From contig OZ243930.1 in NCBI GenBank assembly GCA_965213975.1, positions 756,321 through 820,320 of the forward strand: a stretch of 64,000 nucleotides of DNA, written 5' to 3'. The notes beneath the pieces are model-generated. The model had not been told where the DNA came from. It ran no database searches and saw only the letters and a list, made by a program, of their open reading frames with translations. This document shows, piece by piece, positions 13,003 through 62,365 of the stretch; position 1 is the first letter of the stretch, and each line of letters opens with the position of its first letter. This DNA comes from Candidatus Spongiisociaceae bacterium. Its GTDB lineage: Bacteria; Actinomycetota; Acidimicrobiia; Spongiisociales; Spongiisociaceae. The translations under genes were made by a program, and so were the position numbers.

Positions 13003-13050
13003 CCGCCTATTGTGGCGCGTAGCGCCCAGATATTGAAGCCGGAACCACCC

Positions 13051-17749: not shown

Positions 17750-17800
17750 AGAGTTTCGTCTCTAAGCCGGGCAGCGACAAGGACCGCAGCGAGCATATCA

Positions 17801-33681: not shown

Positions 33682-33688
33682 GCCTACG

Positions 33689-36200: not shown

Positions 36201-36243
36201 CGGTTTCCTTTCGACTCGGGCCAGATGGGTGGCGGGTTTGGTT

Positions 36244-44228: not shown

Positions 44229-46262
44229 ATGGTACGGGTAGCCGTCGATATTGGGGGAACCTTCACGGACGCGGTGCTCATCGACGACAACGGCACCACC
44301 CGGACCGCCAAGGCCCTGACCACTCCCTCCCGCCTGCATGAGGGGGTCTTGGCCGCGATCGATCGACTGGGTGTCGACTGGAGGCGATTGGACTCCATAA
44401 CCAACGGGACCACGGCGGGCTTGAATGCGTTTCTGGAACGGCGGGGTGCCGAGGTGGCCTTGGTCACAACCCGAGGCTTCCGCGATGTGTACGAGTTGGG
44501 TCGTGCCAACCGGCCGGACATGTACAACGTGCGCTACCGGCCGCCCACCCCCCTCATCCCGCGACGTTCTATCTTTGAGGTGGACGAGCGAATGGCACCC
44601 GACGGTTCGGTGGTCCGACCGGTTCCGGGCACCTCGGTTCGAGAGCTGGCCCTACGACTGGCTGGTGATTTTCGGGCGGTGGCTATCTGCCTGCTCCACT
44701 CCTACGCCAACCCCACCCATGAGCAGGAAATCGCCGACGTAATCCGCTCCATCGACCCGACGATCTCGATCGTCTGCTCATCCGACATCGCGCCGGAATG
44801 GCGGGAGTATGAGAGAACTAGCACCACGGCCATCGCCGCCTACGTGGCCCCAATCGTTGAGGGTTACCTGAGCGAGATCGAACAAAGAACGGAGGAACGG
44901 GGGATGCGGGGTGCCTTTCGGGTCATGCAGTCCAACGGGGGAGTGATGTCCGCCGCCTCAGCCCGCCGCAAGCCCATCCAAACCCTCTTCTCAGGTCCAG
45001 TCGGCGGCACGATGGCCTGCCTGTCTCTCTCCGCGGACCTAGCCGAGGAGATCTCGGCCGACCGGCTTATCTGTGTGGATATGGGGGGCACGTCGTTCGA
45101 TATGAGCCTGGTAGTGGACGGCCGAGCCGACGTTGAGCTGGAGTCGGAACTTCAGCGCCATCCCGTCCTAGCCCCCTCGGTCGCCATTCACACCATCGGG
45201 GCCGGTGGCGGCAGCGTCGGCCATCTCGCGGGCGGCGGGTTGAGAGTCGGCCCACGATCGGCCGGGGCCTCGCCTGGACCTGCCTGCTATGGAGCGGGTG
45301 GGACCGAGCCGACGATTACCGATGCCAATCTCTTCCTGGGAAGGCTGCCCAGCACTACCCGCCTCGCCGGTGGAATGACCATTGACCGTGCTGCTGCGGA
45401 GGGCGCCCTTCTCTCGGTGGCTGAGCGGGTGGGTCTTGACGTAGGCGAGCTGGCGAGCGGGATGATCGCGGTGGCCGACTCGACCATGGCCAACGCCATA
45501 CGAGAGATTACGGTCATGCGAGGAATCGATCCGCGGGACTTCGTCCTGGTGGCGTTCGGTGGTGCCGGGCCGCTCCACGCTGTCTCGTTGGCAGAGGAGT
45601 TGGACTTGGGTGCCGTTGTGGTTCCGGTGAATCCCGGTGTCCTCTCCGCCTACGGCATGCTTTCGACGGATACCCGCCATGACGCCGTCCAGAGTTTCTA
45701 CGTGCGCGTGTCGGATCTGACCGAGGAAGCACTTGAAGCGGCCCTCGCCGAGCTTGAGGAGCGGGCGCGGCTCATGGTGAAGGAAGACGGGTTCGACGAC
45801 CAGGCAATATCGCTGGAGCCCTCCGCCGATCTCCGCTACTCGGGGCAGGAATACACGGTAACCCTTCCTCTCGATACCACCCGGGGCTTGGCGAGCCTCA
45901 TAGCCCAGGTTTCCGATCAGTTCGCTGAGGCCCACGAAGTCCGCTACGGGCACAGCAATCCCGGCGAGGCAGTTGAGTTCGTCAACCTCCGCATGGCAGC
46001 CTTCGGGGCGATGACCAAACCCCGGCCCGCGCCGCTGCCCACCGGAGCAATGCCGAAGTTCGTGGACCAAGAACGCACGATGTTCACTAATGGATGGCGG
46101 GACACCCCGGTCTACCATCGTTCTACGCTTCCCCCCGGTGGCGAGTTGGCCGGACCGTCAATCGTCTTGGAGGATGCATGTACGACCCTGATCCCACCCG
46201 GTTGGTCGGCGACAGTATCCCGCCACGGGCATCTCCTGATCACCCGGCGTGATCAGATATGA
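44229..46262 (+). CDS. hyuA: Hydantoinase A / N-methylhydantoinase A / 5-oxoprolinase subunit (HyuA family)
   Basis: N-terminal VAVDIGGTFTDAVLIDD actin-like ATPase motif. Full-length Hydantoinase_A architecture of 677 aa. Confidence 0.85.
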   Translation: MVRVAVDIGGTFTDAVLIDDNGTTRTAKALTTPSRLHEGVLAAIDRLGVDWRRLDSITNGTTAGLNAFLERRGAEVALVTTRGFRDVYELGRANRPDMYNVRYRPPTPLIPRRSIFEVDERMAPDGSVVRPVPGTSVRELALRLAGDFRAVAICLLHSYANPTHEQEIADVIRSIDPTISIVCSSDIAPEWREYERTSTTAIAAYVAPIVEGYLSEIEQRTEERGMRGAFRVMQSNGGVMSAASARRKPIQTLFSGPVGGTMACLSLSADLAEEISADRLICVDMGGTSFDMSLVVDGRADVELESELQRHPVLAPSVAIHTIGAGGGSVGHLAGGGLRVGPRSAGASPGPACYGAGGTEPTITDANLFLGRLPSTTRLAGGMTIDRAAAEGALLSVAERVGLDVGELASGMIAVADSTMANAIREITVMRGIDPRDFVLVAFGGAGPLHAVSLAEELDLGAVVVPVNPGVLSAYGMLSTDTRHDAVQSFYVRVSDLTEEALEAALAELEERARLMVKEDGFDDQAISLEPSADLRYSGQEYTVTLPLDTTRGLASLIAQVSDQFAEAHEVRYGHSNPGEAVEFVNLRMAAFGAMTKPRPAPLPTGAMPKFVDQERTMFTNGWRDTPVYHRSTLPPGGELAGPSIVLEDACTTLIPPGWSATVSRHGHLLITRRDQI

Positions 46263-46353
46263 GCAATGGCTCTCCGTCCGAGGGTGGTGTTATAGGTTTC
46301 TCTCTCGTGGCGGGTAGGTGCCAGCCCCGAGGCGAGCAATAAAGCGAGGTGCA

Positions 46354-47094
46354 ATGAGGATTCAAGTCATCAATCCCATGGGAGTGGATGTATACAACCC
46401 GATGGTGGAGGAAGCCATCGCTGGCGCGGTGGCCCCGGACACCAAGGTTGAAGTCAGGTCGCTAGTCGGAACTGGCGTACCCGCCACCGCCTTCCTGCCT
46501 GCTCATTCTCTGTTCATGAACCAGCTGCTGACCCAAGTGGAGACGGCCGAGCGTGACGGCTTTGATGCGGTGGTCATCGCTTGTGCGGCCGACCCGGGCG
46601 TCGAGGATGCCAAGGATCTGGTCAGTATCCCGGTGACCGGACCCATGGAGGCGGCCGTGGCGGCTGGCCGAGCCTTCGGGCGAATGGCGGTGGTCTGTCC
46701 GAGGATCGAGAGCGGGGAGGGCGAGAACCTGCCCCAAAATGCCAACTGGGTGCGCCGCTTGGTTCACCGTTACGGCGGTGCCTCCATGTTCGCCGGTGTC
46801 ATTGCTGCGCCCAGCGGACACCCTCCCGCCGACGAGGTGGCCAGATTGCTCGATGAGGATCCGGCCGGGTTGCGGGCGGCGGTTCGGGCCGAGATGGCCG
46901 AATCGGCGCGCACTACCGCTATGGAAGCCGCCCAGCGCGCCTTCGACGAGCTCGATGCCGAAGCGATCTTCTTCTCCTGCACTCTCTGGTCCGGGCTGCT
47001 GGGACCCATCGGCGAACGCGTGCCAGCCCGCGTACTTGACCCGATGATCACCCCGATTCTCTATGCAGAGTTTCTGGCTCGGGCCACCGGATGA
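46354..47094 (+). CDS. Asp/Glu/hydantoin racemase family protein
   Basis: MRIQVINPMG...DAVVIACAADPGV and SCT thiol motifs of the Asp/Glu/hydantoin racemase family. AAAGCGAGG RBS. Confidence 0.7.
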   Translation: MRIQVINPMGVDVYNPMVEEAIAGAVAPDTKVEVRSLVGTGVPATAFLPAHSLFMNQLLTQVETAERDGFDAVVIACAADPGVEDAKDLVSIPVTGPMEAAVAAGRAFGRMAVVCPRIESGEGENLPQNANWVRRLVHRYGGASMFAGVIAAPSGHPPADEVARLLDEDPAGLRAAVRAEMAESARTTAMEAAQRAFDELDAEAIFFSCTLWSGLLGPIGERVPARVLDPMITPILYAEFLARATG

Positions 47095-47169
47095 CGGTTC
47101 CTTCATTGCCGGTCTGGTTGTACACCGGGCCGGTCTCTGCACAATAAATCCTGACGAAAAGGAGCGAAA

Positions 47170-48852
47170 ATGATCAAATACAGAATGGCCACCTGGCTGC
47201 GGCTCATCGCAGTGTTGGCCGTTGCCGCCCTTGTGGTTACCGCATGTGGCTCAGACGATGATGCGGAGAGCCCTACGACAACTGCGGCCGAACAGCAGAC
47301 CACCACCACGGCGGCGATGGAGGTTGAAGAACCTCCCGCCGAAGAGCCCATGGAGCCCACGGTTCTCACCATCGGCGTGCCGGGAGATATCGAGACCCTC
47401 GATCCGTGCTGCGCAAACTTCATTCGCAGTCATGAGGCACTACTCATGGTGTACGACGTTCCGGTTATCCATCCCATCGTCGAGCAAAACGGTGCCTTGG
47501 TGGGTGATGCCGACAACCTGAGCCCTCGCTACTTCGAGTCATGGGAAGCGCATGACGACGGCCTTACCTACACCATCAAGGTTCGGGAGGGAATGACCTT
47601 CGATGACGGAACCCCGATCAACGCCGAGACTGTGCGTTTCATGATCGATCGTAACCTCAACACGCCTGGGGGCGGGGCCTGGCTCCTCACCAACATCGCC
47701 TTTGTCACCAAGCCGCCGACCGTGATCGACGAGTACACCCTGGAGCTGGTATCGGATCAGCCCAGCCCGATGGTCATGCAATCGTTCTACATGTCGAGTT
47801 CGGCGGCGGTTGATCCCCAGGTGGTGGAAGCTAATGCCACCGAGGATGATCCGTGGGCGACCGAGTACATGTCTCGCAACGCCGACAACCCCAGTGGCCC
47901 GTACCGTCTGTTGAGCCGGACTCCGGACCAAGAAGTGGTGTTTGAGGCACGCGATAACTACTGGGGCGGCAAGCCAGCATACGATCGGATCGTGTGGAAG
48001 GTGATCCCCTCACCGGCCGAGCGGGTACAGCTACTCCAGACCGGCGACATTGATCTGGCGGTGGGTCTCGGCACGGAAGAATTCAACGCGCTGGACGGCT
48101 CCGCCGGGGTCAAGGTAGTGAGGGCACCCTCCAAGAACATGGCCTACGTGGGGATGAACAACAGCATCGCGCCCTTCGATGACGTCACGGTTCGTCAGGC
48201 GGTCTCCTACGGCATCGACTACGACGACATTCTCGAGAACGTCTACAAGGGAGATGCGCGTCGCCTCTACGGAGCTATCCCCAACGGTTCCGCCGTCTCC
48301 TTGGGTGATCAGGTCGGCTACACCCGTGACCTTGCCACAGCAGAGGAGATGCTGGATTCGAGCGGTTACGACGGAAGTTCGGTGACCCTGACCATCGATG
48401 CGGCCCGGGCCGAGCATCAGCTGATCGCGGTTCGCGTCCAAGCTGCCCTGCGAGAGATCGGCATGGCGGTCGAAATCGAATCCCTCCCGTCGGCAGTATT
48501 CGCCGAGCGGAAGGTGGCTAAAGAGCTACAGATGTTCGTCGATGAGCTGTTGGCTTGGATCGACGACCCCAACTACCAGCTTTCGCTGACCTTAGAGTCC
48601 GGTGTCTTCGGCAACTACGCGGACTACTCGAATGCCCGAGTTGACGAGATCATTCGGGATGGCTGGGCCGAACAGGACGCTGATGCCCGCCGCGCCATCT
48701 TCGAAGAGGCCCAGAGGCTGATTTCCGAGGATGCGCCGTGGGTGTTCCTCGCTCAGCCGGACTTCAAGTTTGCCATGCGCGAGGATGTCGAGGGGTTCGT
48801 GCTCTATCCCAACGCCATCCCTCGCTTCGCCGACCTCTCGCCGGCGAGCTGA
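47170..48852 (+). CDS. ABC transporter substrate-binding lipoprotein, family 5 (Dpp/Opp/Nik-like)
   Basis: Lipoprotein signal with VVTACGSDDD. 560-aa SBP located upstream of the DppBCDF-like genes. AAAAGGAG RBS. Confidence 0.8.
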   Translation: MIKYRMATWLRLIAVLAVAALVVTACGSDDDAESPTTTAAEQQTTTTAAMEVEEPPAEEPMEPTVLTIGVPGDIETLDPCCANFIRSHEALLMVYDVPVIHPIVEQNGALVGDADNLSPRYFESWEAHDDGLTYTIKVREGMTFDDGTPINAETVRFMIDRNLNTPGGGAWLLTNIAFVTKPPTVIDEYTLELVSDQPSPMVMQSFYMSSSAAVDPQVVEANATEDDPWATEYMSRNADNPSGPYRLLSRTPDQEVVFEARDNYWGGKPAYDRIVWKVIPSPAERVQLLQTGDIDLAVGLGTEEFNALDGSAGVKVVRAPSKNMAYVGMNNSIAPFDDVTVRQAVSYGIDYDDILENVYKGDARRLYGAIPNGSAVSLGDQVGYTRDLATAEEMLDSSGYDGSSVTLTIDAARAEHQLIAVRVQAALREIGMAVEIESLPSAVFAERKVAKELQMFVDELLAWIDDPNYQLSLTLESGVFGNYADYSNARVDEIIRDGWAEQDADARRAIFEEAQRLISEDAPWVFLAQPDFKFAMREDVEGFVLYPNAIPRFADLSPAS

Positions 48853-48901
48853 TCTGGAGAGGAGCAAGACCAGGTTGTAAAGGAACCGACGAGGGAAGGA
48901 C

Positions 48902-49909
48902 ATGCACCTAGCCGCCTACGTGCTTCGCCGGATGGCCTACATGCTGGTGGCGCTATTCGGTGTGTCGCTGGTCGCCTTCGTCGTTACCAGGGTGTTGCCC
49001 GGCAACCCCGCGTACATGATCGTGGGGGTCCAGGCCGACGAGTCCACCGTTGCCGCGGTGATCGAACGACTCGGCCTGGATCTCCCGATTCACGAACAGT
49101 ACGTCAGCTACCTCCGCCAACTCCTGTCGGGGGATCTAGGAGATAGCTGGCGTACCAGAAACCCGGTGCTCACCGATCTGGGTGCCCGTTGGCCAGCCAC
49201 CATAGAGTTGGGGAGTGTCGCTTTGGTGCTGGCGTTGGCTTGGTCGATACCCTTTGGGATAATCTCCGCCCTGCGCCGCAAATCCTTCTCGGATAGGGCC
49301 GCCAACGTGGTCTCCGGCCTCGGCGTTTCCATACCGGAGTTTTGGCTGGGTCTGCTCTTGTTGTTGGTGTTCTTCGCCACCCTTGAATGGGCACCGGCAC
49401 CCATCGGTCGCACTCTGGGAGATGTACCCACCCACACCACCGGGATATACACGCTCGACGCCATCCTCGCCCGCGAATGGGGTGCACTGCGTTCCGCGGC
49501 GGCGCAGCTTATCCTCCCCGCGGCGACGCTTGCCTTGGTAGTCGGGGCCCCTCTGCTCCGGGTCACTAGGGGCTTCATGCGTGAGACGATGGAATCGGCT
49601 CATATACGCTCTGCCCGGGCTCTGGGGGTTCCGGAGCGGAGAGTGGTGCTGCGCCACGCGCTACCCAACGTGCTCCTTCCCGTATCCACGATGGTGGCCA
49701 TCATGTATGGCTACCTGCTCGGCGGGACCGTGTTGGTGGAGGTGGTGTTCGCCTGGCCTGGCATCGGTAAGTATGCGATCGACTCAATCAACGCCTCCGA
49801 CTTCGCTCCGGTCCTAGCCGCAGTGCTCCTCAGCGCCTTGTCCTACCTGGTTGTCTACCTGGTGATGGATCTCCTCCATTTCGTGATCGACCCGAGGACT
49901 AGGACATGA
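48902..49909 (+). CDS. ABC transporter permease (DppB/OppB-like)
   Basis: YVLRRMAYMLVALFGVSLVAFVVTRVLPGNP N-terminus typical of DppB. Confidence 0.85.
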   Translation: MHLAAYVLRRMAYMLVALFGVSLVAFVVTRVLPGNPAYMIVGVQADESTVAAVIERLGLDLPIHEQYVSYLRQLLSGDLGDSWRTRNPVLTDLGARWPATIELGSVALVLALAWSIPFGIISALRRKSFSDRAANVVSGLGVSIPEFWLGLLLLLVFFATLEWAPAPIGRTLGDVPTHTTGIYTLDAILAREWGALRSAAAQLILPAATLALVVGAPLLRVTRGFMRETMESAHIRSARALGVPERRVVLRHALPNVLLPVSTMVAIMYGYLLGGTVLVEVVFAWPGIGKYAIDSINASDFAPVLAAVLLSALSYLVVYLVMDLLHFVIDPRTRT

Positions 49910-50751
49910 CGACGACTCAGCGCGAGGGAAGGCCGGGCCGTCGGTTGAGGACGTCCGCCTCGTTCCGAGCAGCTATCACGAGCCCGGCGGTGATAGTGCT
50001 TGGCTTCATCGCGCTGGCTTCGATCTTCGGTCCGTTCTTGATTCGGGATCCCTTGGAAATAGGGGTGGGGGACACCCTTGCTGCACCCACGGGTGAGTTC
50101 TGGTTCGGGACGGATCAGTTCGGAAGAGATATCTTTGCCCGAGTTGTGCACGCGGTGCGACTCGACTTGGTGGTCGGCTTGGTAGCCGCGGCCCTAGCCG
50201 TGGTGGTAGGAATGCCGCTGGGTGCCCTCGGCGCATACCGGGGAGGCGTCTTCGACGCCTTGCTTCTCCGGATATCCGAGTCCTTCCAAGCCTTCCCCAC
50301 CCTATTGTTGGCCCTCGGGATCGTGGCGGCGGTGGGTCGCAGCATCCCGATCCTGGTAATGGTCATAGGGATTGTCAACATCCCCGTCTACCTTCGACTC
50401 ACCAGGAGCGCCGTCAAGCCGCTGGTCGAGTCGGACTTCGTGCTGGCAGCCCGGTGCGCAGGTAAGAGCCAGGCCTCAATTCTCCGCCGTCACATAATTC
50501 CCAACGTGGCTGAGGTGGTCTTCGCCCAGTTCTCTGTGAACGTGGCATGGGCCATCCAAATCCTGGCTGCCTTGAGTTTCGTCGGCTTGGGCGTCCAGTT
50601 GCCCACGCCGGAGTTGGGGGCAATGGTGCGCGACGGGGCCGATTACACCGTCTACGGTCAGTGGTGGGTCTCGCTGTTCCCTGGGTTGGTAATACTGGGT
50701 ATCGTCCTTACCCTCAACCAGATCTCCGATCAGATCAGGCACCTTCGATGA
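49906..50751 (+). CDS. ABC transporter permease (DppC/OppC-like)
   Basis: Overlaps the upstream gene by 4 nt. BPD-transporter permease with six TM helices. Confidence 0.85.
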   Translation: MTTTQREGRPGRRLRTSASFRAAITSPAVIVLGFIALASIFGPFLIRDPLEIGVGDTLAAPTGEFWFGTDQFGRDIFARVVHAVRLDLVVGLVAAALAVVVGMPLGALGAYRGGVFDALLLRISESFQAFPTLLLALGIVAAVGRSIPILVMVIGIVNIPVYLRLTRSAVKPLVESDFVLAARCAGKSQASILRRHIIPNVAEVVFAQFSVNVAWAIQILAALSFVGLGVQLPTPELGAMVRDGADYTVYGQWWVSLFPGLVILGIVLTLNQISDQIRHLR

Positions 50752-51737
50752 CGGATGCCCCCGACTCCGCGGGTCAGTATTCCCCACCTGATCTCGTCGA
50801 TATCAAGAACCTTGTCGTCGGGTTCCGTCTGGATGCAAAGCGGAGAACGCTGCCGCTTCAGGGCGTTAACCTCACGATCCCCCAGAACAGCCGAATGGCC
50901 TTGGTAGGGGAGTCGGGATCGGGCAAGAGCCTCACCGCGGCGGCCATGATCGGGATGTTGCCCGCCGCGGCCGAGGTCATCGACGGCGAGATTCGCTTCC
51001 GGGGAGAGAACCTCATCGGGGCCTCCCCAAAGAGGCTTCGTGACCTGCGCGGGCGGCAGATCGCCATCATGTTCCAGAACCCCAGGGCGTCGCTCAACCC
51101 GGTTCTCACCGTCGGGGGACAGATCGCCGAGCTGATCAGGACCCATTCGGGGATCGGGCGGAGAGAAAGCCGAGAACGAGCCATCGACCTCCTAGACCAG
51201 ATGGGGGTACCCGACGCCCGTCGCCGGGCCAGCGACTACGTGCATCAGTACTCGGGTGGGATGGCCCAGCGGGCCGCCCTGGCGATGGCGCTCTCCTGCC
51301 GCCCGGATCTACTCATCGCCGACGAACCTACCACTGGGCTTGATGCCACCCTGCAGCAACAAGTGCTCGAGTTGGTGGTGGAGCAGGTGGGTAATCGGGG
51401 GGCCTCCCTTTTGCTCATAACCCACGACATCGCCGTCGCCCGTCACACCTGCGAGCGAGTGGCCGTGTTATACGCCGGTCGGGTGATGGAAAGCGGACCC
51501 ACCGCCCAGGTGGCGCGGTCGCCAGCCAACCCGTACACCAGAGCCCTGCTCAGGGCCTTTTCCACCGTTGACGAAGGCCGGATGTACGCCATACCGGGCA
51601 CGGTTCCCACGCTCTCCGAGATGCTCGATGAATGTCCGTTCGTCGGCCGTTGCGAAGATGCCATCGATGAATGCCGATCGGCGCTACCCGAGCTGAAACC
51701 GATGGAGGAGCGGGAGGTGGCGTGCATCAGAGCGTGA
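50748..51737 (+). CDS. ABC transporter ATP-binding protein (DppD-like)
   Basis: ATG overlaps the permease stop. Walker A GESGSGKS. Signature YSGGMAQR. Walker B LLIADEPTT. The track ORF begins at 50547. Confidence 0.85.
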   Translation: MTDAPDSAGQYSPPDLVDIKNLVVGFRLDAKRRTLPLQGVNLTIPQNSRMALVGESGSGKSLTAAAMIGMLPAAAEVIDGEIRFRGENLIGASPKRLRDLRGRQIAIMFQNPRASLNPVLTVGGQIAELIRTHSGIGRRESRERAIDLLDQMGVPDARRRASDYVHQYSGGMAQRAALAMALSCRPDLLIADEPTTGLDATLQQQVLELVVEQVGNRGASLLLITHDIAVARHTCERVAVLYAGRVMESGPTAQVARSPANPYTRALLRAFSTVDEGRMYAIPGTVPTLSEMLDECPFVGRCEDAIDECRSALPELKPMEEREVACIRA

Positions 51738-52762
51738 CCGGCACCACTCTCCTGGAAGTTGACGGCCTGGTAAAGGACTACGTCACCCGGGACGCCAAGC
51801 TCCGCAGGCGGATCGTCAGGGCGGTAGACGGGGTCAGCTTCGAGGTCAGGGCTGGCGAGACCTTCGCCATCGTGGGGGAGTCGGGTTCGGGTAAGTCCAC
51901 CGTTGGTCGGGTGGTCCTCAAGCTGACCCCCGCCACCGAGGGGAAGGTACGGCTCCTCGGGGAAGACATCCTTGGCCTCGGTGAGAGGCAGTTCCGGCCG
52001 ATGCGAGGGCACATTCAGATGGTCTTTCAGGACCCTCTGGCGGCCTTCGACCCCAGGTCCACCATCCGCTCCAGCCTGCGCGAGTTCGCCGAGTTTGACA
52101 GCAGCCGGACCCGCCCGCGGATCAACGAGGATATTGACGAAGCGATAAGCAGCGTCGGTCTACCGGCCGATATCGCCGATCGGCGGCCCGCCGAGGTCAG
52201 CGGAGGGCAACTACAACGCCTGAGCGTGGCCCGGTCGCTGCTGGTCTCGCCCCGATTGTTGTTCCTCGATGAACCCACTTCCTCGTTAGATGTATCCATC
52301 CGGGGCCAGATTGTCAACCTGTTGACCTCACTCCAGAAGACCGAGGGCCTCTCCTATCTGCTGGTCGCCCATGACCTGCGGGTGGTTTACGCCATGGCTC
52401 ATCGGGTGGCGGTCATGTACTTGGGCGAGTTTGTGGAAGTGGGAAGTAGACGCCGGATCTTCACCCGGCCCGCCCACCCGTACACTCGAGGGCTCCTCGA
52501 AGCAGCCCAACTTGAGGCACCCCGTCGTACCGGAAGTCCCGTTAGGTTGACGGGAGAGATCTCCGCCGACCACGGATCCTCATCCAAATGTCGCCTCATG
52601 CCGAGATGTCCATTCGCCGAGGCGAGATGTGGTGAGCCGCAGCCTCTGCGGGAAACTGCCAGAGGTCATATGGTGAGGTGCTGGAAGGCAATCGAAGACC
52701 CGTTGAGCATAGGACTACCCGCGCCGACCCACAGGAACAGGAGCGAAGAAGATGACAGTTGA
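51722..52762 (+). CDS. ABC transporter ATP-binding protein (DppF/OppF-like)
   Basis: The GTG overlaps the upstream gene, preceded by a GGGAGGTGG RBS. Walker A GESGSGKS. Signature VSGGQLQR. C-terminal oligopeptide-type extension. Confidence 0.85.
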   Translation: MHQSVTGTTLLEVDGLVKDYVTRDAKLRRRIVRAVDGVSFEVRAGETFAIVGESGSGKSTVGRVVLKLTPATEGKVRLLGEDILGLGERQFRPMRGHIQMVFQDPLAAFDPRSTIRSSLREFAEFDSSRTRPRINEDIDEAISSVGLPADIADRRPAEVSGGQLQRLSVARSLLVSPRLLFLDEPTSSLDVSIRGQIVNLLTSLQKTEGLSYLLVAHDLRVVYAMAHRVAVMYLGEFVEVGSRRRIFTRPAHPYTRGLLEAAQLEAPRRTGSPVRLTGEISADHGSSSKCRLMPRCPFAEARCGEPQPLRETARGHMVRCWKAIEDPLSIGLPAPTHRNRSEEDDS

Positions 52763-54383
52763 TCCGGTTACCACTGAGGTTATTCGCAATGCGTTTATCT
52801 CGATAGCGTCACAGATGAACAACAATCTGGCCCGCTCCGCCTACACCCCCATCATCTACGAAATGAAGGACTGCTCGGTGGGGTTGTTCGACGCTCAAGG
52901 GAACCTCTTGGGTCAGGCACCTGGGCTGCCCATCTTTCTGGGGAGCTTGGAAGCTGCCATCGACGCCACCCTCGAACATCTCGGCGGGCCGGAGACCTGT
53001 CGACCCGGTGACGTTTACGCCGTCAACGACAGCTACATGGTGGGCAGTCACCTCAACGATGTCAACGTGATATCGCCCATCTTTCACGAGGGAAGATTGG
53101 TCGGGTTCGGTGCTACCAAGGCACATTGGTTGGACATCGGTGCCAAGGATCCGGGACAGGCCATGGACTCCACCAGCATCTACCAGGAGGGGTATCGGAT
53201 TGCTCCCGTCCACCTGTACCGGGAAGGAAAACCGGAGACGGGGATGCTCGACTTCCTGACCAGGAACAGCCGGTTGCCCCGTTCGGTATGGGGCGACATG
53301 CATGCCCAGATCGCCGCCTGCCGAACCGGCGAGAAGGGTCTGAGCGAGTTGATCGATCGCTTCGGGCTGGAGACCGTCAACGCCGCCGCGGAAGTCATCT
53401 TCGACCAGTGCGAACGCCTTGATCGCGAGGCCGTGGCTGAGATCCCTGACGGTCGCTACGAGACGGACGGAGAGATGGACAGCTGGGGTCCCGGGGGCGA
53501 CCCGGTGTACGTGAGGGTGGTGGTAACGGTGGACGGCGAGGAGATCAGGGTGGACCTGAGCGGCTCGGCACCGATGACGCCGGGTTGCATGAACTGCGGC
53601 TTCGCCCAGACGGCGGCAGCTGCCAACCTTGCCTTCAAGATGCTGGTCAACTCCGACGTGCCGGTCACCGCGGGAACCTTCCGCAACCTCACGGTTACCG
53701 CGCCGGAAGCCTCCGTCTTCGATGCCCGCGAACCGGCCGCTTGCCAGTACTACTACCCGCACCTCGGGATGATGATCGATCTCTTCATCCGGGCTCTGGC
53801 CCCGGCCGTTCCCGACCGCGTCGTAGCTGGCCAAGCCGCTGATCCGATGAACGTACTCTTCAGCGGCCCCAACCCTCGGACCGGCCAGGACTTTGTGGTA
53901 GGTGAGGCAACCGCGGTCGGTTGGGGGGCTTATCAGGGCGGAGACGGTACCAATGGTCTCATCAACTACGGCGGCGGCGACCTGAAGAACATCCCGATCG
54001 AGGTGTTGGAATCCCGCTACCCGATTCGGGTACACAAGTACGGGGTATGGCCCGACTCGGGAGGTAAGGGTCGCTGGCGAGGGGGTCTGGGCGTGTTGAG
54101 GGAATACGAGGTGTTGGCCGACAACATAACCGTATCCACCTGGTTCGAACGCACCCGAACCCCGGCGTGGGGCTTGTTCGGGGGTGAGGACGGGGCGGCC
54201 ACGGATGTGTCCTTGACCGTGGACGGGCAAAACTTCCCCCTCCTCAAGGCCAACCAGCGTCCCGCGCCCAAGGGGGCCCGCCTCCATGTCGCCACCGGTG
54301 GAGGTGGTGGCTTCGGTAACCCTGACGATCGGGACATGGAAGACATCCGCCAGGATTTGGCCGAGGGATACACCACCAAGTGA
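52752..54383 (+). CDS. hyuB: Hydantoinase B / N-methylhydantoinase B / 5-oxoprolinase subunit (HyuB family)
   Basis: MTVDPVTTEVIRNAFISIASQMNNNLARSAYTPIIYEMKDCSVGLFD is the canonical HyuB N-terminus. Confidence 0.85.
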   Translation: MTVDPVTTEVIRNAFISIASQMNNNLARSAYTPIIYEMKDCSVGLFDAQGNLLGQAPGLPIFLGSLEAAIDATLEHLGGPETCRPGDVYAVNDSYMVGSHLNDVNVISPIFHEGRLVGFGATKAHWLDIGAKDPGQAMDSTSIYQEGYRIAPVHLYREGKPETGMLDFLTRNSRLPRSVWGDMHAQIAACRTGEKGLSELIDRFGLETVNAAAEVIFDQCERLDREAVAEIPDGRYETDGEMDSWGPGGDPVYVRVVVTVDGEEIRVDLSGSAPMTPGCMNCGFAQTAAAANLAFKMLVNSDVPVTAGTFRNLTVTAPEASVFDAREPAACQYYYPHLGMMIDLFIRALAPAVPDRVVAGQAADPMNVLFSGPNPRTGQDFVVGEATAVGWGAYQGGDGTNGLINYGGGDLKNIPIEVLESRYPIRVHKYGVWPDSGGKGRWRGGLGVLREYEVLADNITVSTWFERTRTPAWGLFGGEDGAATDVSLTVDGQNFPLLKANQRPAPKGARLHVATGGGGGFGNPDDRDMEDIRQDLAEGYTTK

Positions 54384-55588
54384 GGTATGCCCGACCCTGG
54401 CGCAGCCCGGCCTTGCGGGTTCGCGGTGCTTCGTGGTTCGACACCGCCACCGGCGACTCCCGGGTGGGGGATCTCTTGGTGGAGGACGGAGTAATCCAGG
54501 AGGACGATCGGCGGGCCGCCACTGACCTTGACGGGCAGGGACTGCATGCCATGTTCGGCCTGTGGGACTGTCACGCCCATGCGGGTGGGCTCATGTACGA
54601 CCTGGATGCTTCCGGGTACTTCGAGGCAGCACCAGATCGCACCATCCGAGCGGGTGAAAACTTTCGTCAAGCAGTAGAGATGGGGGTGACGGGGGTCAGG
54701 TGCGTCGACGAGGCCGACGACCTCGACCTGGCGTGGGCCAGAGCCTACGCCGCCGGGAGTTCCCTCGGGCCGCGAGTGATGGGTGCCGGAAGAGGCATCA
54801 GAACAACAGCCGGGCACGGCACGGCCTTCCCGCGGGTCTATACCCAGCTGGGGGCCGAGTTGGTGGCGGACGGTCCGGACGAGATGGCCCGGGCCGTGCG
54901 GAGGCAGGTGGAGCGCGGTGCCCACTGGATCAAGATCATGCTCACCGGTGGGTTGTACAGCCCTCACGAAGCCGCAGATGAGGGCCAGTTCACCGATACC
55001 GAGCTAGCCACCCTGATGGAGGTGGCCGCCGGGCGCAACATACCCGTGGCCGCTCATTGTGGAGGTTCGGAACCAGCGGTTCGGTTTGCGGAGTTGGGGG
55101 GACGGTCTATCGAACACGGCTATATGCTCGACGAACGAGCCGCGGCAGCGATGGCTCGAAACGGCACCTGGCTGGTGCCCACGGTCGGTGTCACCCACGA
55201 TCAGGAGTTCATCGCGGCCGAAGGTTGGCCGAGCCACGCCGCCGACCGATCCCGCAGCCTCATGCCCCTCCACGCCGAAGCGCTGCACGCCTGTCTTGAT
55301 GCCGGGGTCCGGGTGGCAGTCGGTGCCGACCTCAACCCGATCGGCCCTCGCCTGCATCGTGAGCTGACAATGCTGGAACGGGCCGGGATGGACCGGCAAT
55401 CGGTCCTCCACGCCGCCTCGGTGGGCGGGCGGCACCTCAACGGTCTGGGCGGGTCCTCATCCCCCGATCCCGGAGCCGCGGCCGATCTGATTCTTCTGGA
55501 GGATCACCCAATGCGCAGGCCCGAGACGATGCAGAAGCCGGTCTTGGTGATCACCCATGGTCGAGTTGTCTACTCCCGCCTCTCGTAA
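54380..55588 (+). CDS. Amidohydrolase-superfamily metal-dependent hydrolase
   Basis: HxH motif GLWDCHAHAG plus downstream His/Asp metal ligands of the Amidohydro_1 TIM barrel. Confidence 0.75.
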   Translation: MRYARPWRSPALRVRGASWFDTATGDSRVGDLLVEDGVIQEDDRRAATDLDGQGLHAMFGLWDCHAHAGGLMYDLDASGYFEAAPDRTIRAGENFRQAVEMGVTGVRCVDEADDLDLAWARAYAAGSSLGPRVMGAGRGIRTTAGHGTAFPRVYTQLGAELVADGPDEMARAVRRQVERGAHWIKIMLTGGLYSPHEAADEGQFTDTELATLMEVAAGRNIPVAAHCGGSEPAVRFAELGGRSIEHGYMLDERAAAAMARNGTWLVPTVGVTHDQEFIAAEGWPSHAADRSRSLMPLHAEALHACLDAGVRVAVGADLNPIGPRLHRELTMLERAGMDRQSVLHAASVGGRHLNGLGGSSSPDPGAAADLILLEDHPMRRPETMQKPVLVITHGRVVYSRLS

Positions 55589-55633
55589 CGGGTCCCTCGG
55601 CCGAAACCAGTCGGTAACTACACTGTCCGCTCT

Positions 55634-56782
55634 ATGAGCACCAACATCCAACTCGATCACCAAGCCCGCCGTCGGGCCCTCGAAGCTGTCCTTCACGAGG
55701 AGGGGGTTGACCTGGTCTGGCTCCCGATCGGTGCCGATCTCGAATACCTGACCGGCATCCAGCGTCGGGTTCCGACCTTCGGGGATGTCAACTACGCGCA
55801 CGGATGGGTGGCGGGATGCTTTATCGCTCCCGGGCGCGACCCGGTGTTCATACTCCCGCGCAATTACGTGGAGTTTGACCTGCCAGAAGGGGTACCTGGG
55901 GAGGTAGTAAGCGTCAACGAGACCGACGACGGGAAGGCGATGTTCTCCCGGGTGGCCCGTTCCTTCGCCCGCCCCGAGACCTTGGCGGTGGGTGCCCGAA
56001 CCTGGGCCACTACCACGATAAACCTCCTGGAGGATCTGGCCAGCCCCCGGTTGGTGAACGGCGGCCAGCTTGTCAATCGCCTGCGGAGAATCAAGAGCCC
56101 CGAAGAGCTAGAACTGTTGCGGCAGGCTTGCCGGGTGGCTGATCAGGCCATGGAGGAGACCACCGCCCGGATTACGGTGGGCGTGAGCGAGTTGGATTTG
56201 GCCGAAGAGGTCAACTACCACCTTCTGCGGCTGGGCTCTCGCACCTGGTCGTTCGACACTGCGGTCTGGTCGATGGGTCCCGGCGACGACCGGGATGCCA
56301 ACGTCCGGCTCTCTCGGGCGGAAGTACGGGCGGGTATGGGTTTGTCCTTCGACTTTGGTGCCGTAGTACAGGGCTATTGCTCCGATTTCGGGAGGACTAT
56401 CCGGATCGGGGCACCGGACGCGGATTACCGCCGGGTGTACGAAGTGGTGATGGCGGCCCAGGCGGCGGGGATGCGGGTGGCCAAGCCCGGTGTGCTCGCC
56501 TCAGAGGTCCATAGGGTTACCCGTTCGGTGATAGTGGAAGCTGGTTTTGGCGACTGGTTCCGGCATCGCACCGGCCATTGCATCGGTCTGGACGTCCATG
56601 AGGAGCCCTTCATCTCCCCGGAGGATCACACCCCGCTGGAAGCAGGCATGACCTTCACCATCGAACCATCGGTATTCTGGCCGGGCCGGGTGGGGGTAAG
56701 GGTTGAGGACATAATCCTGTGTACCGAGGAGGGTGGGGTCAAGTTGAACGAGCATCCCACCACCCTCACCATCCGCGAGTAG
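55634..56782 (+). CDS. M24-family metallopeptidase (creatinase/Xaa-Pro peptidase-like)
   Basis: Creatinase-type N-terminal domain plus the M24 pita-bread motif HRTGHCIGLDVHEEP. Confidence 0.85.
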   Translation: MSTNIQLDHQARRRALEAVLHEEGVDLVWLPIGADLEYLTGIQRRVPTFGDVNYAHGWVAGCFIAPGRDPVFILPRNYVEFDLPEGVPGEVVSVNETDDGKAMFSRVARSFARPETLAVGARTWATTTINLLEDLASPRLVNGGQLVNRLRRIKSPEELELLRQACRVADQAMEETTARITVGVSELDLAEEVNYHLLRLGSRTWSFDTAVWSMGPGDDRDANVRLSRAEVRAGMGLSFDFGAVVQGYCSDFGRTIRIGAPDADYRRVYEVVMAAQAAGMRVAKPGVLASEVHRVTRSVIVEAGFGDWFRHRTGHCIGLDVHEEPFISPEDHTPLEAGMTFTIEPSVFWPGRVGVRVEDIILCTEEGGVKLNEHPTTLTIRE

Positions 56783-59143: not shown

Positions 59144-59629
59144 CTACTGATCCTCGGGGTTCCCGAGATCCTCCATGATCTGGTCGATGGTGTGGCTGAT
59201 CACGTACAGCCCGCGGGCGGTAACCGATACCCCCGACCCTTCCGCGTTCAATGACCCGCTGATCAGCAACCTACGGCCCCGGCGCTCCTCCACGCGACCT
59301 CGCAGGCCCAATCGATCTTCGGTCGACACCGGTTGTTTGTAGCGAAGCTCCAACCGCGCCGTCACGGACAGCACCTGATGGGTGATGATGCCTGCCCACA
59401 CCAGGATCTCGTCAAGCGCGGTGGCGGCAATTCCTCCGTGCAGGTTTCCTACCGTGCCCGCCAGGTCCGAGCGTCCCACGAAATCGGCCAACACCTCGTC
59501 GCCGTCCATCCTGAAGTTGTCGATCTGTAACCCAATAGGATTGGCTCGCCCGCACGCAAAGCAATGGTCTCCAGTGTGTTGCCGCAGAGCGTCGATGATC
59601 GGTGAGATCGACTCGACCGGTTCAACCAA
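59144..59629 (-). CDS. PaaI/4HBT-family hot-dog thioesterase
   Basis: HGG motif (VGNLHGGIAATALDE) of PaaI-type thioesterases. Confidence 0.75.
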   Translation of the reverse strand: MVEPVESISPIIDALRQHTGDHCFACGRANPIGLQIDNFRMDGDEVLADFVGRSDLAGTVGNLHGGIAATALDEILVWAGIITHQVLSVTARLELRYKQPVSTEDRLGLRGRVEERRGRRLLISGSLNAEGSGVSVTARGLYVISHTIDQIMEDLGNPEDQ

Positions 59630-60188
59630 AGCGGATCACGCCGCCTTCGACCGATTTCACGTTCACCACCGACCAAACCGGCCAACCCCGTTCCTCGATT
59701 CGGCGGCGCGCGCCCACCCACGCCTTCTCTATGGCGAAGATGGTCCCCAGCATCTCGCATCCGAGTTCTTCTACGATTTCTCCCAGCGCCAGGGCCGTTC
59801 TGCCCCTCGCCAAGAAGTCGTCAACCACGATCACCCGGGTTCGGGGCTCCAGAACCCGACGGCGGATCTCAATGGTGTACTCGAATCCCTTGGTTGCCGA
59901 GTTCACTTCCCGGCTGACAGCTTCTCGGTCACCGGGGAGTACGTATTTCTTGGCGTAGACCATCGGCACGCTCAGAACGGTGGCGGTGGCGAGGGCGGGG
60001 GCGATCCCCCCGGCTTCGGCGGTCACGATCACCTCGGGCTCCAGCGGAGCGGCGATGGTGGCTATGCGACGGCCGAACTCCTGCATGATTCGGGTGTCGA
60101 TGCGGTGGTTGAGGAAGGTATCGACACCTATGATTTCGCCGTTGACCCTTGATTGCTGCTCAACGTGGCGAACAAGATCCATTGGCAT
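59622..60188 (-). CDS. xpt: Xanthine phosphoribosyltransferase
   Basis: MDLVRHVEQQ...GVDTFLNHRID N-terminus. PRPP-binding VIVVDDFLARGRTA. Confidence 0.85.
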   Translation of the reverse strand: MPMDLVRHVEQQSRVNGEIIGVDTFLNHRIDTRIMQEFGRRIATIAAPLEPEVIVTAEAGGIAPALATATVLSVPMVYAKKYVLPGDREAVSREVNSATKGFEYTIEIRRRVLEPRTRVIVVDDFLARGRTALALGEIVEELGCEMLGTIFAIEKAWVGARRRIEERGWPVWSVVNVKSVEGGVIRFG

Positions 60189-60197: not shown

Positions 60198-60211
60198 GTT
60201 GCCAGTTGGGA
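60198..60211 (-). repeat. Reverse-orientation copy of the motif (CCCAACTGGCAACT on the minus strand)
   Basis: Lies 10-25 nt upstream of the xpt start. A further half-site, TGGCAACT, sits on the minus strand at 60289-60296. Confidence 0.5.
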
Positions 60212-60324
60212 CTGGGGCTGTTGCGAAGTTCATGAGCCCCCTCTACTCGTGGATTCCTGGCGAGGTCGGTGGTCAGTGGACGGCAGCTAGTTGCCAAAGC
60301 AGCCCTGACCACCCGGAGTGCCAC

Positions 60325-61014
60325 TCAATCTGGGTTGGGCGTCTTCGGAAGGTAGGGACACATGTCGGCCAGGTCGCATTCCCAACACCGGGGGTGTCGG
60401 GCATTGCAGACATCTCTTCCGAACTGGATAATCCTCATCGACAGCTGACGCCATTCGTGTTTTGGAACCAGCGCCTTGAGATCCTGTTCAATGCGGGTCG
60501 GGTCCTTCTCTCTGGTGAGGCCGAGCCGGTTGGTGATCCGCCGGACATGGGTGTCCACAGCGATTGCTGGTTGTCCGAAGGCCTCAGCGAGGACCACCGA
60601 TGCCGTCTTTCTTCCCACCCCCTTCAATGTGACCAGCTCGTCGATGTTGGTGGGGACTTCTCCGGCGTAGCGCTCCACGAGGTCCTGGGAGAGGGCAATC
60701 ACCGAGCGGGTCTTCTGCCGGTAGAAGCCGGTAGAGAACAGGACCTCTTCTACCTCTTCAGGATGAGCGACGGCAAGATCGGCCGCGGTCGGCCACCGAT
60801 TGAACAGCTTTGGAGTAACCCGGTTCACGTTGGCGTCGGTGGTCTGGGCCGAAATGACGGTGGAAACCAGCAACTCGAACGGGTCCCTATAGCTAAGGGC
60901 GGTCCTTATAGTCGGGTAACGATTGGCGAGGCGGTTGACTACCCGGCGAGCGAGTCCACGCTCAGCAGGCGCAGGAATAGATCCGTCTGCCCGCTTCTCT
61001 CCTCTGGCCATGGC
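60325..61014 (-). CDS. nth: Endonuclease III (DNA glycosylase/AP lyase)
   Basis: HhH-GPD motif LVTLKGVGRKTASVVL. 4Fe-4S cluster loop CNARHPRCWECDLADMC. Start trimmed to ATG 61014. The track ORF extends to 61173. Confidence 0.88.
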   Translation of the reverse strand, partial: AMARGEKRADGSIPAPAERGLARRVVNRLANRYPTIRTALSYRDPFELLVSTVISAQTTDANVNRVTPKLFNRWPTAADLAVAHPEEVEEVLFSTGFYRQKTRSVIALSQDLVERYAGEVPTNIDELVTLKGVGRKTASVVLAEAFGQPAIAVDTHVRRITNRLGLTREKDPTRIEQDLKALVPKHEWRQLSMRIIQFGRDVCNARHPRCWECDLADMCPYLPKTPNPD

Positions 61015-61108
61015 GTGAGGATAGGCGATGGGGCTGGTTCGGTGGCATCGGCACGACAGCCGCGAGGTCCCGGGCCCAGCGGAAGCAAGTCTTCGCTCCT
61101 GCGTGCGG

Positions 61109-62365
61109 TTATCTAGATGTTCGCCTCGAACGGTTTTCTTTGCGAGGGTTCGTAGGGTGCGACATCCCCACACCGAGGGTCTCGGGGATCAGGAACTGAA
61201 GCGCCATTGCTATGACCACGCCGATTCCCAACAATGACACCGTAACTGAGAGGCCCAGTTCATCGACTAGCCGTCCGGCGAGCGCTAGTCCGGCGATGGC
61301 ACCTAGGACAGAGGTGGCGTGGAGCCATTGGGTGGCGGTGGCCCTGGTTCCGGTGGGGAATAGTTCGGTCCGTTGGGCGGAGGTAACTGACAGAGCCGCC
61401 GAGCTCCCGAAGGCCGAGACAGCCGCGGCCGCCGCCAACCACTCCGGGCTGGTTAACCAGTAGAACCCCAGCCCCCCGGCCAATCCGATTAGCAGGGAGA
61501 GCCAAATGGTGATCCTTCGACCGACAGTGTCCCCTAACCGACCCCCGAGGAAGAACCCGGTACCGCCGATAGTCCCACCAATCAGCATCAATCGCACCGC
61601 CTCGGATGATGTCATGCCCAGACCATGCACCAGACGGTCAAGCGAGAACGTAACCGCTACTGCGGAGAAGGCGGCGAGGAAGATGCTGTAGGAGGCTGCT
61701 GGCCAGAAGTAGCGCGCCTCCGGACCGAATAGCGGATCAAGGATCCCACCCTCGGCACCGTGCCGAAAGATCTGACTTTCCTCAACCTTAACCCTCAACC
61801 ATAGATATAAACCGAGTCCCGGGGCGGCGGCGGCGAACAGCAGTCTCCATCCCTCGTCCATTGCCTGTGCCACAGGCAAGGCAAGCAACGCGGCCCCAGC
61901 ACCTATCGCGACGGCGCTTGAGTAGAGGCTGAGTGCCCAGGCCCGACCGGACCAACGAACCTGTTCTGCCACCAGAACGGCGGAGAGCATGGCTAGGGCA
62001 GCACCGCCCATACGGGCGAGGACCTGGAGGGCGGTATACGCGGTCGGAGAAAACGCCAACGACGTGACGGCGGTGGCCCCCATCAGCAACAGGTATGCGG
62101 TCAGGAACGGCCCTCGTCTGCCCCAGCGGTCCGCAAACACGCCGTAGATCACTGCGACTAGTGATCCGATTCGGGCGATGGCAAACAGGTAGCTCGCCTC
62201 CGACTGTGAGAGCTCGAATGCGGACCTCACAAACGGCAGGGTATTGGTCGCCTGCGTCTGGGCGTACCCCTGAAATAGGCCGACCAGATACATCAGACGG
62301 AGCAGCCGCCAATCTTCCGTTCGGTAACCGGCGGCCGGCCCGAACATGCGGATGAATGCTTTCAA
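61109..62365 (-). CDS. MFS transporter
   Basis: 12-TM pattern. MFS motif GVFADRWGRRGP between TM2 and TM3. Confidence 0.8.
   Translation of the reverse strand: MKAFIRMFGPAAGYRTEDWRLLRLMYLVGLFQGYAQTQATNTLPFVRSAFELSQSEASYLFAIARIGSLVAVIYGVFADRWGRRGPFLTAYLLLMGATAVTSLAFSPTAYTALQVLARMGGAALAMLSAVLVAEQVRWSGRAWALSLYSSAVAIGAGAALLALPVAQAMDEGWRLLFAAAAPGLGLYLWLRVKVEESQIFRHGAEGGILDPLFGPEARYFWPAASYSIFLAAFSAVAVTFSLDRLVHGLGMTSSEAVRLMLIGGTIGGTGFFLGGRLGDTVGRRITIWLSLLIGLAGGLGFYWLTSPEWLAAAAAVSAFGSSAALSVTSAQRTELFPTGTRATATQWLHATSVLGAIAGLALAGRLVDELGLSVTVSLLGIGVVIAMALQFLIPETLGVGMSHPTNPRKENRSRRTSR

Follow-up and report, generated by a model that had tools for sequence, protein, structure and literature searches.

A conserved hyuAB gene cluster of a sponge-associated actinobacterium is a candidate for import and ATP-driven opening of peptide-like cyclic amides

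A stretch of 64,000 nucleotides from a Candidatus Spongiisociaceae bacterium (GenBank assembly GCA_965213975.1, contig OZ243930.1, positions 756,321 to 820,320), hereafter called the window, was analysed for the function of ten plus-strand genes located at 44229-56782. They encode the subunits HyuA and HyuB of a hydantoinase/oxoprolinase-type enzyme, a racemase, an ATP-binding cassette (ABC) importer resembling the dipeptide transporter Dpp, an amidohydrolase, and an M24 metallopeptidase. The analysis suggested, with a probability of roughly 0.6, that the operon imports a peptide-like cyclic amide, opens the ring with ATP, and cleaves the product. A first-pass annotation, made from the sequence alone, had proposed import, racemization, ATP-driven opening of a cyclic amide, and amide hydrolysis, and this proposal was kept as the best fit by gene content. 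The recurrent core comprises a peptide-type importer, an enzyme that hydrolyses cyclic amides with ATP, and a dipeptidase-type hydrolase or two of them, which is the minimum required for the use of a peptide-like ring compound. The analysis thereby defines a conserved, uncharacterized actinobacterial module in which HyuAB is combined with an importer resembling Dpp and with hydrolases of the prolidase type, while a ring racemase may be present or absent; the surrounding genes suggest cyclic amides that are peptide-like and linked to proline. Annotations of hydantoinase/oxoprolinase enzymes alternate almost freely between N-methylhydantoinase and 5-oxoprolinase, yet substrates are known for only a handful of them.

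The first-pass annotation had described the ten genes as an ensemble of hyuA, racemase, ABC transporter, hyuB, amidohydrolase, and M24 genes; all ten were confirmed at their positions on the plus strand, and the Pfam domains agreed with the labels (Table 1). The genes are tightly packed. Overlaps of 4 bp were found at perB/perC, perC/atpD, atpD/atpF, and hyuB/amidohydrolase, and an overlap of 11 bp at atpF/hyuB, which gives five overlapping junctions in total. The stop codon of perC is overlapped by the atpD start (ATG 50748), and the direct overlap of hyuB by the amidohydrolase gene, followed by the M24 gene, had been noticed before and was confirmed. The other intergenic gaps measure 45-91 bp, and a gap of 301 bp lies 3' of the M24 gene. 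In a consensus scan, terminator-like and promoter-like sites did not rise above the shuffled expectation, and Rfam gave zero matches in the 40-60 kb part of the window. Judged by this packing and by the conservation described below, the ten genes probably form one operon and would be co-transcribed.

Table 1. Genes of the hyuAB cluster, with coordinates in the window
Gene	Position	Strand	Pfam domains and assignment
hyuA	44229-46262	+	677 aa; Hydant_A_N, Hydantoinase_A, Hydant_A_C; large ATP-binding subunit, hydantoinase/oxoprolinase family
racemase	ORF 46318-47094, likely start 46354	+	Asp_Glu_race; two-Cys hydantoin/allantoin-racemase-like epimerase
binding protein	47170-48852	+	SBP_bac_5; lipoprotein signal; Dpp/Opp/opine-type family 5
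perB, DppB-like permease	48902-49909	+	BPD_transp_1_N, BPD_transp_1
perC, DppC-like permease	49906-50751	+	BPD_transp_1
atpD, DppD-like ATPase	about 50748-51737	+	ABC_tran, oligo_HPY
atpF, DppF-like ATPase	51734-52762	+	ABC_tran, oligo_HPY
hyuB	52752-54383	+	543 aa; Hydantoinase_B; small hydrolytic subunit
amidohydrolase	54380-55588	+	Amidohydro_1; COG1228, binuclear-metal type
M24B metallopeptidase	55634-56782	+	Peptidase_M24, Creatinase_N; prolidase/YpdF/aminopeptidase-P type

HyuA matched its three Pfam domains with 305, 176, and 45 bits (in the order of Table 1), and HyuB matched Hydantoinase_B over the full length with 571 bits; all scores exceeded the Pfam cutoffs. Ring opening of a stable lactam is thermodynamically unfavourable, which is the usual reason for ATP coupling in the hydantoinase/oxoprolinase family. 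The phosphate-binding motifs P1 (DxGGTxTD) and P2 (DxGGT), defined for the A subunit of caprolactamase (PMC8453981), are intact in HyuA as DIGGTFTD at residue 7 and DMGGT at residue 284. By domains and motifs, HyuA and HyuB belong to this family of ATP-dependent cyclic-amide hydrolases. Its members phosphorylate the lactim tautomer of the substrate, for which an N-H amide is needed (PMC6061476); the A subunit carries out the phosphorylation, the B subunit the hydrolysis (PMC6061476, PMC8453981). The lactams of characterized members are varied and include caprolactam, valerolactam, and 2-oxoindoleacetate (PMC8453981). ATP-dependent opening of a lactam or hydantoin ring is, as predicted from the sequence, probably the activity of HyuAB.

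Comparison with solved structures gave 429 bits for HyuA against the fused chain of PDB 7hk5 and 416 bits against CapA of caprolactamase; HyuB scored 300 bits against 7hk5 and 218 bits against CapB. The 7hk5 chain comprises 1288 aa and was deposited as N-methylhydantoinase. The scores for caprolactamase in NCBIfam (NF050156 and NF050157) were 519.6 bits for CapA and 268.6 bits for CapB and thus far below the equivalog cutoff of 1000; those for acetophenone/acetone carboxylase (ApcC 284 bits, ApcD 85 bits) were likewise far below the cutoff of 1500 each, and Pfam revealed no extra carboxylase subunit genes in the cluster. Judged by sequence, HyuA and HyuB are an uncharacterized clade of the ATP-dependent lactamase family.

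The ATP-dependent lactamases CapAB of Pseudomonas jessenii and the valerolactam-induced OplAB of P. putida KT2440 (PDB 6yra) share with the window proteins the two-subunit domain set and the P1/P2 motifs. By analogy, the same mechanism is expected. The cap genes are adjacent and followed by an aminotransferase gene; unlike the window cluster, they are accompanied by no peptide importer, racemase, or dipeptidases. The substrate of CapAB is an omega-lactam, whereas that of the window enzyme is likely peptide-like.

By its Pfam domains, the importer is of the Dpp/Opp type: a binding protein of family 5 is accompanied by a pair of permeases and by two ATPases, each ending in an oligo_HPY domain. 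The five-component architecture with two oligo_HPY-tailed ATPases is the same as in E. coli DppABCDF. The binding protein matched SBP_bac_5 with 269 bits and carries a signal peptide with the lipobox VVTAC; it remained below every NCBIfam equivalog threshold, for instance with 98 bits against a DppA cutoff of 1005. Furthermore, the position of DppA Asp408, which we take to be the residue anchoring the free alpha-ammonium group at the N-terminus of the peptide, is occupied by Trp in the window protein and in all close orthologues, four residues before a conserved DP motif. The ligand of the importer is therefore probably not an ordinary free dipeptide, as far as this can be read from the sequence.

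A paralogous arrangement was observed in other sponge-associated Acidimicrobiales: the loci L018-L028 harbor, at about 9.5-13.7 kb in each, the binding-protein gene as a tandem pair of paralogues (products of about 650 aa, 67-73% identical to the window protein), and tblastn gave no match there to the permeases, the ATPases, or HyuAB of the window. In L018 the paralogues are located between dnaK-grpE-dnaJ and opposite-strand genes for OCD/mu-crystallin, DHDPS-family, and epimerase proteins.

Both hydrolases encoded at the 3' end of the cluster scored best to Xaa-Pro dipeptidases or carboxypeptidases. The best NCBIfam match of the amidohydrolase was the Caulobacter-type Xaa-Pro dipeptidase NF051886 with 138.6 bits, below its cutoff of 500. 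Its PDB matches included ochratoxinase, the Xaa-Pro dipeptidase 2qs8, the prolidase 3feq/3n2c, and the Arg carboxypeptidase Cc2672. The binuclear metal site (H65, H67, K185, H226, H246, and D317) is invariant in 21 homologues. By sequence, the enzyme is a member of the COG1228 group of prolidases, Xaa-Arg carboxypeptidases, and ochratoxinases, and no NCBIfam match to cytosine or creatinine deaminase was obtained.

The M24 protein matched YpdF (E=2e-52, 181 bits) and prolidases (E=1e-44 to 1e-48, 155-168 bits), as compared to E=4e-13 and 52 bits for creatinase 1chm. Alignment to YpdF and proline dipeptidase together with a motif scan revealed that all metal ligands of M24B Xaa-Pro peptidases are present (D240, D251, H315, E344, and E358), as is the HxxGHxxGxxxHE region. 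The NCBIfam equivalog cutoffs were not reached, neither for the aminopeptidase PRK09795 (194 bits, cutoff 393) nor for archaeal PepQ (171 bits, cutoff 630); by sequence, the protein is a member of the prolidase/aminopeptidase P/YpdF group at the family level only.

The first-pass annotation had described this peptidase as creatinase/prolidase-like with a creatinase-type N-domain and had seen in the gene set a mirror of the route from creatinine via N-methylhydantoin to sarcosine, in which HyuAB would open N-methylhydantoin or a creatinine-like compound and the amidohydrolase and a creatinase-like M24 enzyme would follow. The window shares with this pathway a HyuAB-family enzyme and an M24 fold with the creatinase/prolidase N-domain. 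In addition, JGI labels close HyuB homologues "N-methylhydantoinase B" by automatic annotation, the top PDB match bears the name N-methylhydantoinase, and creatinine use by sponge symbionts has been discussed in the literature. Creatinase_N is, however, the N-domain common to prolidases and aminopeptidase P and is no indicator of a creatinase; with its full set of metal ligands and the scores given above, the M24 protein was rejected as a creatinase. The amidohydrolase belongs with the COG1228 prolidases, and creatinine would not be expected to enter by a peptide-type ABC importer. A creatinine route furthermore requires creatinine deaminase or creatininase, N-carbamoylsarcosine amidase or creatinase, and sarcosine oxidase, but the Pfam families of creatininase, N-carbamoylsarcosine amidase, and sarcosine oxidase/dehydrogenase were found neither among the scanned window genes nor in nine related loci described below. 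A creatinine-type function was therefore considered highly improbable.

The likely start of the racemase gene was set by an identical database protein of 246 aa (P0121). The protein matched Asp_Glu_race with 77 bits. Its best solved relatives were a hydantoin racemase-like protein of P. horikoshii, the fungal cyclic-peptide epimerase OpaE, and allantoin racemase, with low identity and partial alignments (E=4e-10 to 1e-6); it was not closest to MurI or Asp racemase, and glutamate racemase was barely detectable. Both catalytic Cys motifs are kept. In alignments, the Cys of VIACAADPG falls on the catalytic Cys in PDB 2eq5 and in 3qvj, whereas 3qvk carries a Ser there; the second Cys, in FFSCT, aligns with GCT of 2eq5. 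Domain and motif Cys residues place the protein in the hydantoin/allantoin racemase subgroup, and the nearest solved relatives use the ring substrates hydantoin, allantoin, or a cyclized peptide. Racemization of 5-substituted hydantoins or allantoin is a putative activity of the enzyme. The catalytic residues are intact in all enzymes of the cluster: P1/P2 in HyuA, the Cys pair in the racemase, HxH-K-H-H-D in the amidohydrolase, and D-D-H-E-E in the M24 peptidase.

The similarity of the racemase to hydantoin and allantoin racemases also brings up a hydantoin route of the kind known from hyuA-hyuB-hyuC-hyuE of Pseudomonas sp. NS671: 5-substituted hydantoins would be racemized and opened with ATP to N-carbamoyl amino acids, which the amidohydrolase or the M24 enzyme would decarbamoylate. 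We take NS671 to carry also the hydantoin racemase gene hyuE, and its HyuC to be of the M20 type. Compared by description, NS671 and the window share HyuAB, a hydantoin-racemase-family enzyme, and a downstream amide hydrolase and thus the same logic of racemization, opening, and hydrolysis. The NS671 hydrolase is an N-carbamoyl-amino-acid amidohydrolase, whereas the window encodes a COG1228 amidohydrolase and an M24B peptidase; unlike in the window, hyuA and hyuB are adjacent in NS671, and its gene set contains no ABC importer. NS671 HyuAB is a characterized family member that works with the downstream amidohydrolase HyuC (PMC8453981). In the window cluster, however, Pfam revealed no carbamoylase of the M20 (Peptidase_M20) or nitrilase type, and both hydrolases score as prolidase-type peptidases. 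The Dpp-type importer and the proline genes near related loci would be unexpected for this route. Moreover, hydantoins are rare as natural substrates, which was counted against it. In sum, a hydantoin pathway appeared very unlikely.

Racemase homologues were also observed apart from hyuAB. In two Caldilineaceae-type contigs (L041/L042, at 8.6-12.3 kb), a 45% identical homologue lies between a major facilitator superfamily (MFS) transporter and an M20 peptidase gene; a Dpp-like ABC system and an AstE/AspA-like hydrolase are encoded nearby, and hyuAB is absent. This suggests a wider role of the racemase subfamily in the catabolism of peptide-like compounds.

Conservation of the cluster was analysed by a scan with the binding protein using one genome per species. 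It returned 29 loci, all from metagenome-assembled genomes of Acidimicrobiia and several of them labelled Candidatus Spongiisocius or Spongiisociaceae; the window therefore belongs to a sponge-symbiont lineage. In about 18 of the 29 loci, tblastn matches of 65-91% amino acid identity follow the gene order of the window from hyuA through the racemase, importer, and hyuB genes to the amidohydrolase gene; M24 completes the series in some of them and is missing in others. Since the same order recurs in these related genomes, the cluster is a real unit far beyond chance. Within the sponge clade, a luciferase-like gene stands where the amidohydrolase gene would be expected in one relative, and in another an opposite-strand prephenate dehydratase gene lies between the amidohydrolase and M24 genes. 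One locus of the scan (L015) contains at about 13.2-18.9 kb a spurious open reading frame (ORF) of 1903 aa, and tblastn matches stop there after the first ATPase; this anomaly may be a masked or N-filled stretch in the record, and the gene order is unreadable there.

The window surroundings are ordinary chromosome with fatty-acid synthesis genes, the dcw cell-division cluster, and genes for acetyl-CoA synthetase and thyA. The G+C content of the cluster (0.62-0.655) is like that of the rest of the window, and the earlier designation as a catabolic or genomic "island" was dropped on compositional grounds. The window flanking genes adjoin the cluster in no relative, and subgroups of relatives share other flanks; across the family, the cluster is thus found in no fewer than three chromosomal contexts.

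Orthologues of HyuB with 65-70% identity occur in other Actinobacteria, including the cultured Amnibacterium flavum and Phytohabitans kaempferiae. The neighborhoods of nine more distant orthologous loci were read (from Phytohabitans, Amnibacterium, Gaiellaceae, soil and other metagenomes, and a Tara Oceans marine contig). In all nine, hyuA and hyuB are adjacent and usually overlap, and a Dpp-like five-gene ABC system lies directly beside them. An M24 peptidase gene was found in seven of these loci, a luciferase-like oxidoreductase gene in six, an Amidohydro_1 gene in five (47-57% identical to the window enzyme), and the racemase gene in two. This conserved partnership of HyuAB with a transporter argues against a housekeeping 5-oxoprolinase, an identity which the first-pass annotation had named, together with independent transcription of the ABC system, as the finding that would overturn its proposal.

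Neighbor-joining of HyuB sequences places the split-order sponge loci in one monophyletic clade, which is nested within the loci with adjacent hyuA and hyuB; hence the split represents one derived rearrangement and not a new architecture. As read from this tree, the separation of hyuA and hyuB is a single ancestral permutation in sponge-associated Acidimicrobiia with no evident functional meaning. The location of a transporter between two enzyme subunits had been regarded as unusual. The position is indeed peculiar, but it is a derived feature of one sponge clade, and the transporter as such is the usual neighbor of hyuAB. The split itself is therefore of minor significance.

Two types of module were distinguished. 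Type A modules (the window, Phytohabitans, and the Tara Oceans contig) have the racemase and a transporter 51-66% identical to that of the window. Type B modules have no racemase and a different Dpp-like transporter (25-44% identical), while HyuAB is equally similar. Thus the racemase co-varies with the transporter type. In the Phytohabitans kaempferiae module, identity to the window proteins is 59% for HyuA, 69% for HyuB, 48% for the racemase, 51% for the binding protein, 55-60% for the permeases, 53-57% for the ATPases, and 61% for the M24 peptidase, and from this similarity the function is most likely the same. In this module (L031), the overlapping genes hyuA and hyuB come first, followed by those for the racemase and transporter; instead of the amidohydrolase gene there are genes for a luciferase-like oxidoreductase and a SnoaL-like protein, and an aminotransferase and an HpcH/HpaI aldolase are encoded upstream.

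Further arrangements were observed among the related loci. The Tara Oceans contig (L043) carries at 17480-18193, on the opposite strand, a second Asp_Glu_race paralogue beside SnoaL-like and M24 genes; it adjoins the hyuA-hyuB-racemase-ABC-luciferase-like module, with DAO, DHDPS, and Orn/DAP decarboxylase genes upstream. Plasmids of Paenarthrobacter and Arthrobacter (L032/L033) encode a HyuB 47% identical to that of the window, a divergent racemase, an MFS transporter, a GAF protein, and an amidohydrolase, and PutA in L032; the module adjoins a gene pair for a hydantoinase-N-domain protein and a DUF917 protein, and a PucR regulator gene. Here these enzymes recur together with a transporter from another class.

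For the cluster in the window, the following sequence of reactions is proposed. The Dpp-type importer would take up the compound, and the two-Cys racemase would interconvert stereoisomers at the carbon adjoining the ring carbonyl. HyuA would then use ATP to phosphorylate a secondary amide of the ring in its lactim form, HyuB would hydrolyse it, and the linear product would be cut by the COG1228 amidohydrolase and/or the M24B peptidase to amino acids, one of them probably proline or hydroxyproline. We infer both the order of these reactions and the identity of the substrate.

Families of proline/hydroxyproline catabolism were found near four related loci. PutA is encoded in the Amnibacterium locus (L030), and a second PutA beside the 47% identical HyuAB homologue on the Arthrobacter-type plasmid L032. 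Pro_racemase and OCD/mu-crystallin occur in L035, DAO and DHDPS in L043, and OCD and DHDPS beside the tandem binding-protein paralogues in L018. From the replacement of Asp408 by Trp together with these proline genes, a blocked or cyclic proline-containing peptide is the likeliest substrate.

Within this group, 2,5-diketopiperazines containing proline or hydroxyproline are the leading candidate, although a tentative one. Since phosphorylation of the lactim needs an N-H amide, cyclo(Xaa-Pro) would open at its sole secondary amide to Xaa-Pro, and Xaa-Pro dipeptides are the classic substrates of prolidases. Diketopiperazines epimerize easily and occur as mixed stereoisomers, which would explain why a ring epimerase travels with the transporter. 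Otzen et al. (PMC6061476) speculated that many "oxoprolinase" genes may be cyclic dipeptide hydrolases. It is possible, and again tentative, that the operon represents the first genetically defined pathway for ATP-driven opening of Pro/Hyp 2,5-diketopiperazines, composed of importer, ring epimerase, a HyuAB "diketopiperazinase", and prolidases.

Several points weigh against the proposed pathway. The argument from Asp408 derives from an alignment of about 25% identity, anchored on the conserved DP motif. Proline-gene neighbors were found in some loci only and none in the window, and the partnership is putative. The M24 linkage varies among the sponge relatives, several of which have no downstream M24 gene. 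The luciferase-like oxidoreductase and SnoaL/DUF4440 genes of many related modules are left unexplained by a scheme of ring opening and dipeptidase cleavage, as are the aminotransferase and HpcH/HpaI aldolase genes beside two soil versions. Substrates of this HyuAB clade are predictions, and a literature search for a characterized ATP-dependent diketopiperazine hydrolase or for a link between hydantoinase, prolidase, and hydroxyproline found only the speculation of Otzen et al.

Next to diketopiperazines, N-blocked lactam peptides such as pyroglutamyl-proline have to be considered. The importer would take up pyroglutamyl-Xaa, for example pyroglutamyl-Pro, and HyuAB would open the 5-oxoprolyl ring to yield Glu-Pro for the prolidases; alternatively, the amidohydrolase, as an enzyme cleaving N-acyl-prolines, would first release 5-oxoproline, on which HyuAB would act as a true 5-oxoprolinase. 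The higher score of HyuB to 7hk5 than to CapB is consistent with this route, as the length of the 7hk5 chain presumably matches that of mammalian 5-oxoprolinases, and a binding protein devoid of the Asp anchoring the N-terminus fits a blocked N-terminus. The proline-catabolism genes near related loci fit as well. Furthermore, PDB 3mkv and 3n2c were among the matches of the amidohydrolase, and Raushel-lab work on these structures reportedly places N-acyl-proline-cleaving enzymes among the COG1228 relatives. However, HyuA scores equally to CapA and 7hk5, which was itself deposited as N-methylhydantoinase and not as 5-oxoprolinase, and a step for the racemase is difficult to find, given that the solved relatives of this enzyme use ring substrates. 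There is no sequence-defined bacterial 5-oxoprolinase of the HyuAB type for comparison (PMC6061476). A pyroglutamyl route was judged unlikely.

Another lactam or N-heterocycle was also taken into account: for instance an opine-type lactam as in the agropinic-acid system of Agrobacterium, a lactam of ornithine or lysine derived from a siderophore fragment, or the ring of a sponge alkaloid. An acyl or amino-acid group attached to such a ring would be removed by the two hydrolases. Opines are also among the ligands of family-5 binding proteins, and the opine binders AgaA and AccA were matched by the window protein at E=1e-21 to 1e-23, but they were outscored by the peptide binders GsiB/YliB and DppA. 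The range of lactams accepted by the HyuAB family would be compatible with such a substrate, the OCD-family genes near L032 and L035 possibly encode ornithine cyclodeaminases, and the luciferase-like and SnoaL genes of related modules suggest extra chemistry. On the other hand, Pfam identified no opine-catabolic oxidase or dehydrogenase genes in the sponge operon. A plasmid collection contained no close homologue of HyuB; the best match was 51% identical, and the Agrobacterium plasmid homologues reached at most about 36%, so that a link to the agropinic-acid lactamase was not supported. Such alternative ring compounds are quite unlikely substrates.

If the diketopiperazine assignment is true, the module comprises genes which degrade very common and very stable natural products and signalling molecules; genes for diketopiperazine degradation of this kind were not described in the literature searched. 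Sponge symbionts would gain a route to host- or microbe-derived cyclic dipeptides, and, together with soil and marine Actinobacteria, they would feed on cyclic dipeptides from collagen or microbes. The cultured carriers Phytohabitans kaempferiae and Amnibacterium flavum make this idea directly testable.

Additional observations concern other parts of the window. Just upstream of the operon, three adjacent minus-strand genes at 34377-39842 encode an 860-aa molybdoenzyme resembling xanthine dehydrogenase/aldehyde oxidase with a fused [2Fe-2S] domain, a 354-aa amidohydrolase, and a 678-aa protein in which Pfam found nothing but 4Fe-4S motifs at the C-terminus; this trio may be a separate module for the catabolism of N-heterocycles or purines. 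The longest ORFs of the divergent genes for acetyl-CoA synthetase (minus strand, GTG 42990) and an AI-2E transporter (plus strand, ATG 42993) start 2 bp apart, and probably at least one true start is located downstream of the longest-ORF start. Five ORFs had no Pfam match, namely 12235-13569 (-), 32361-33125 (+), 33235-33903 (-), 59382-60152 (+), and 60199-61116 (+); three of them have a high third-position G+C content, and two follow thyA downstream of the operon.

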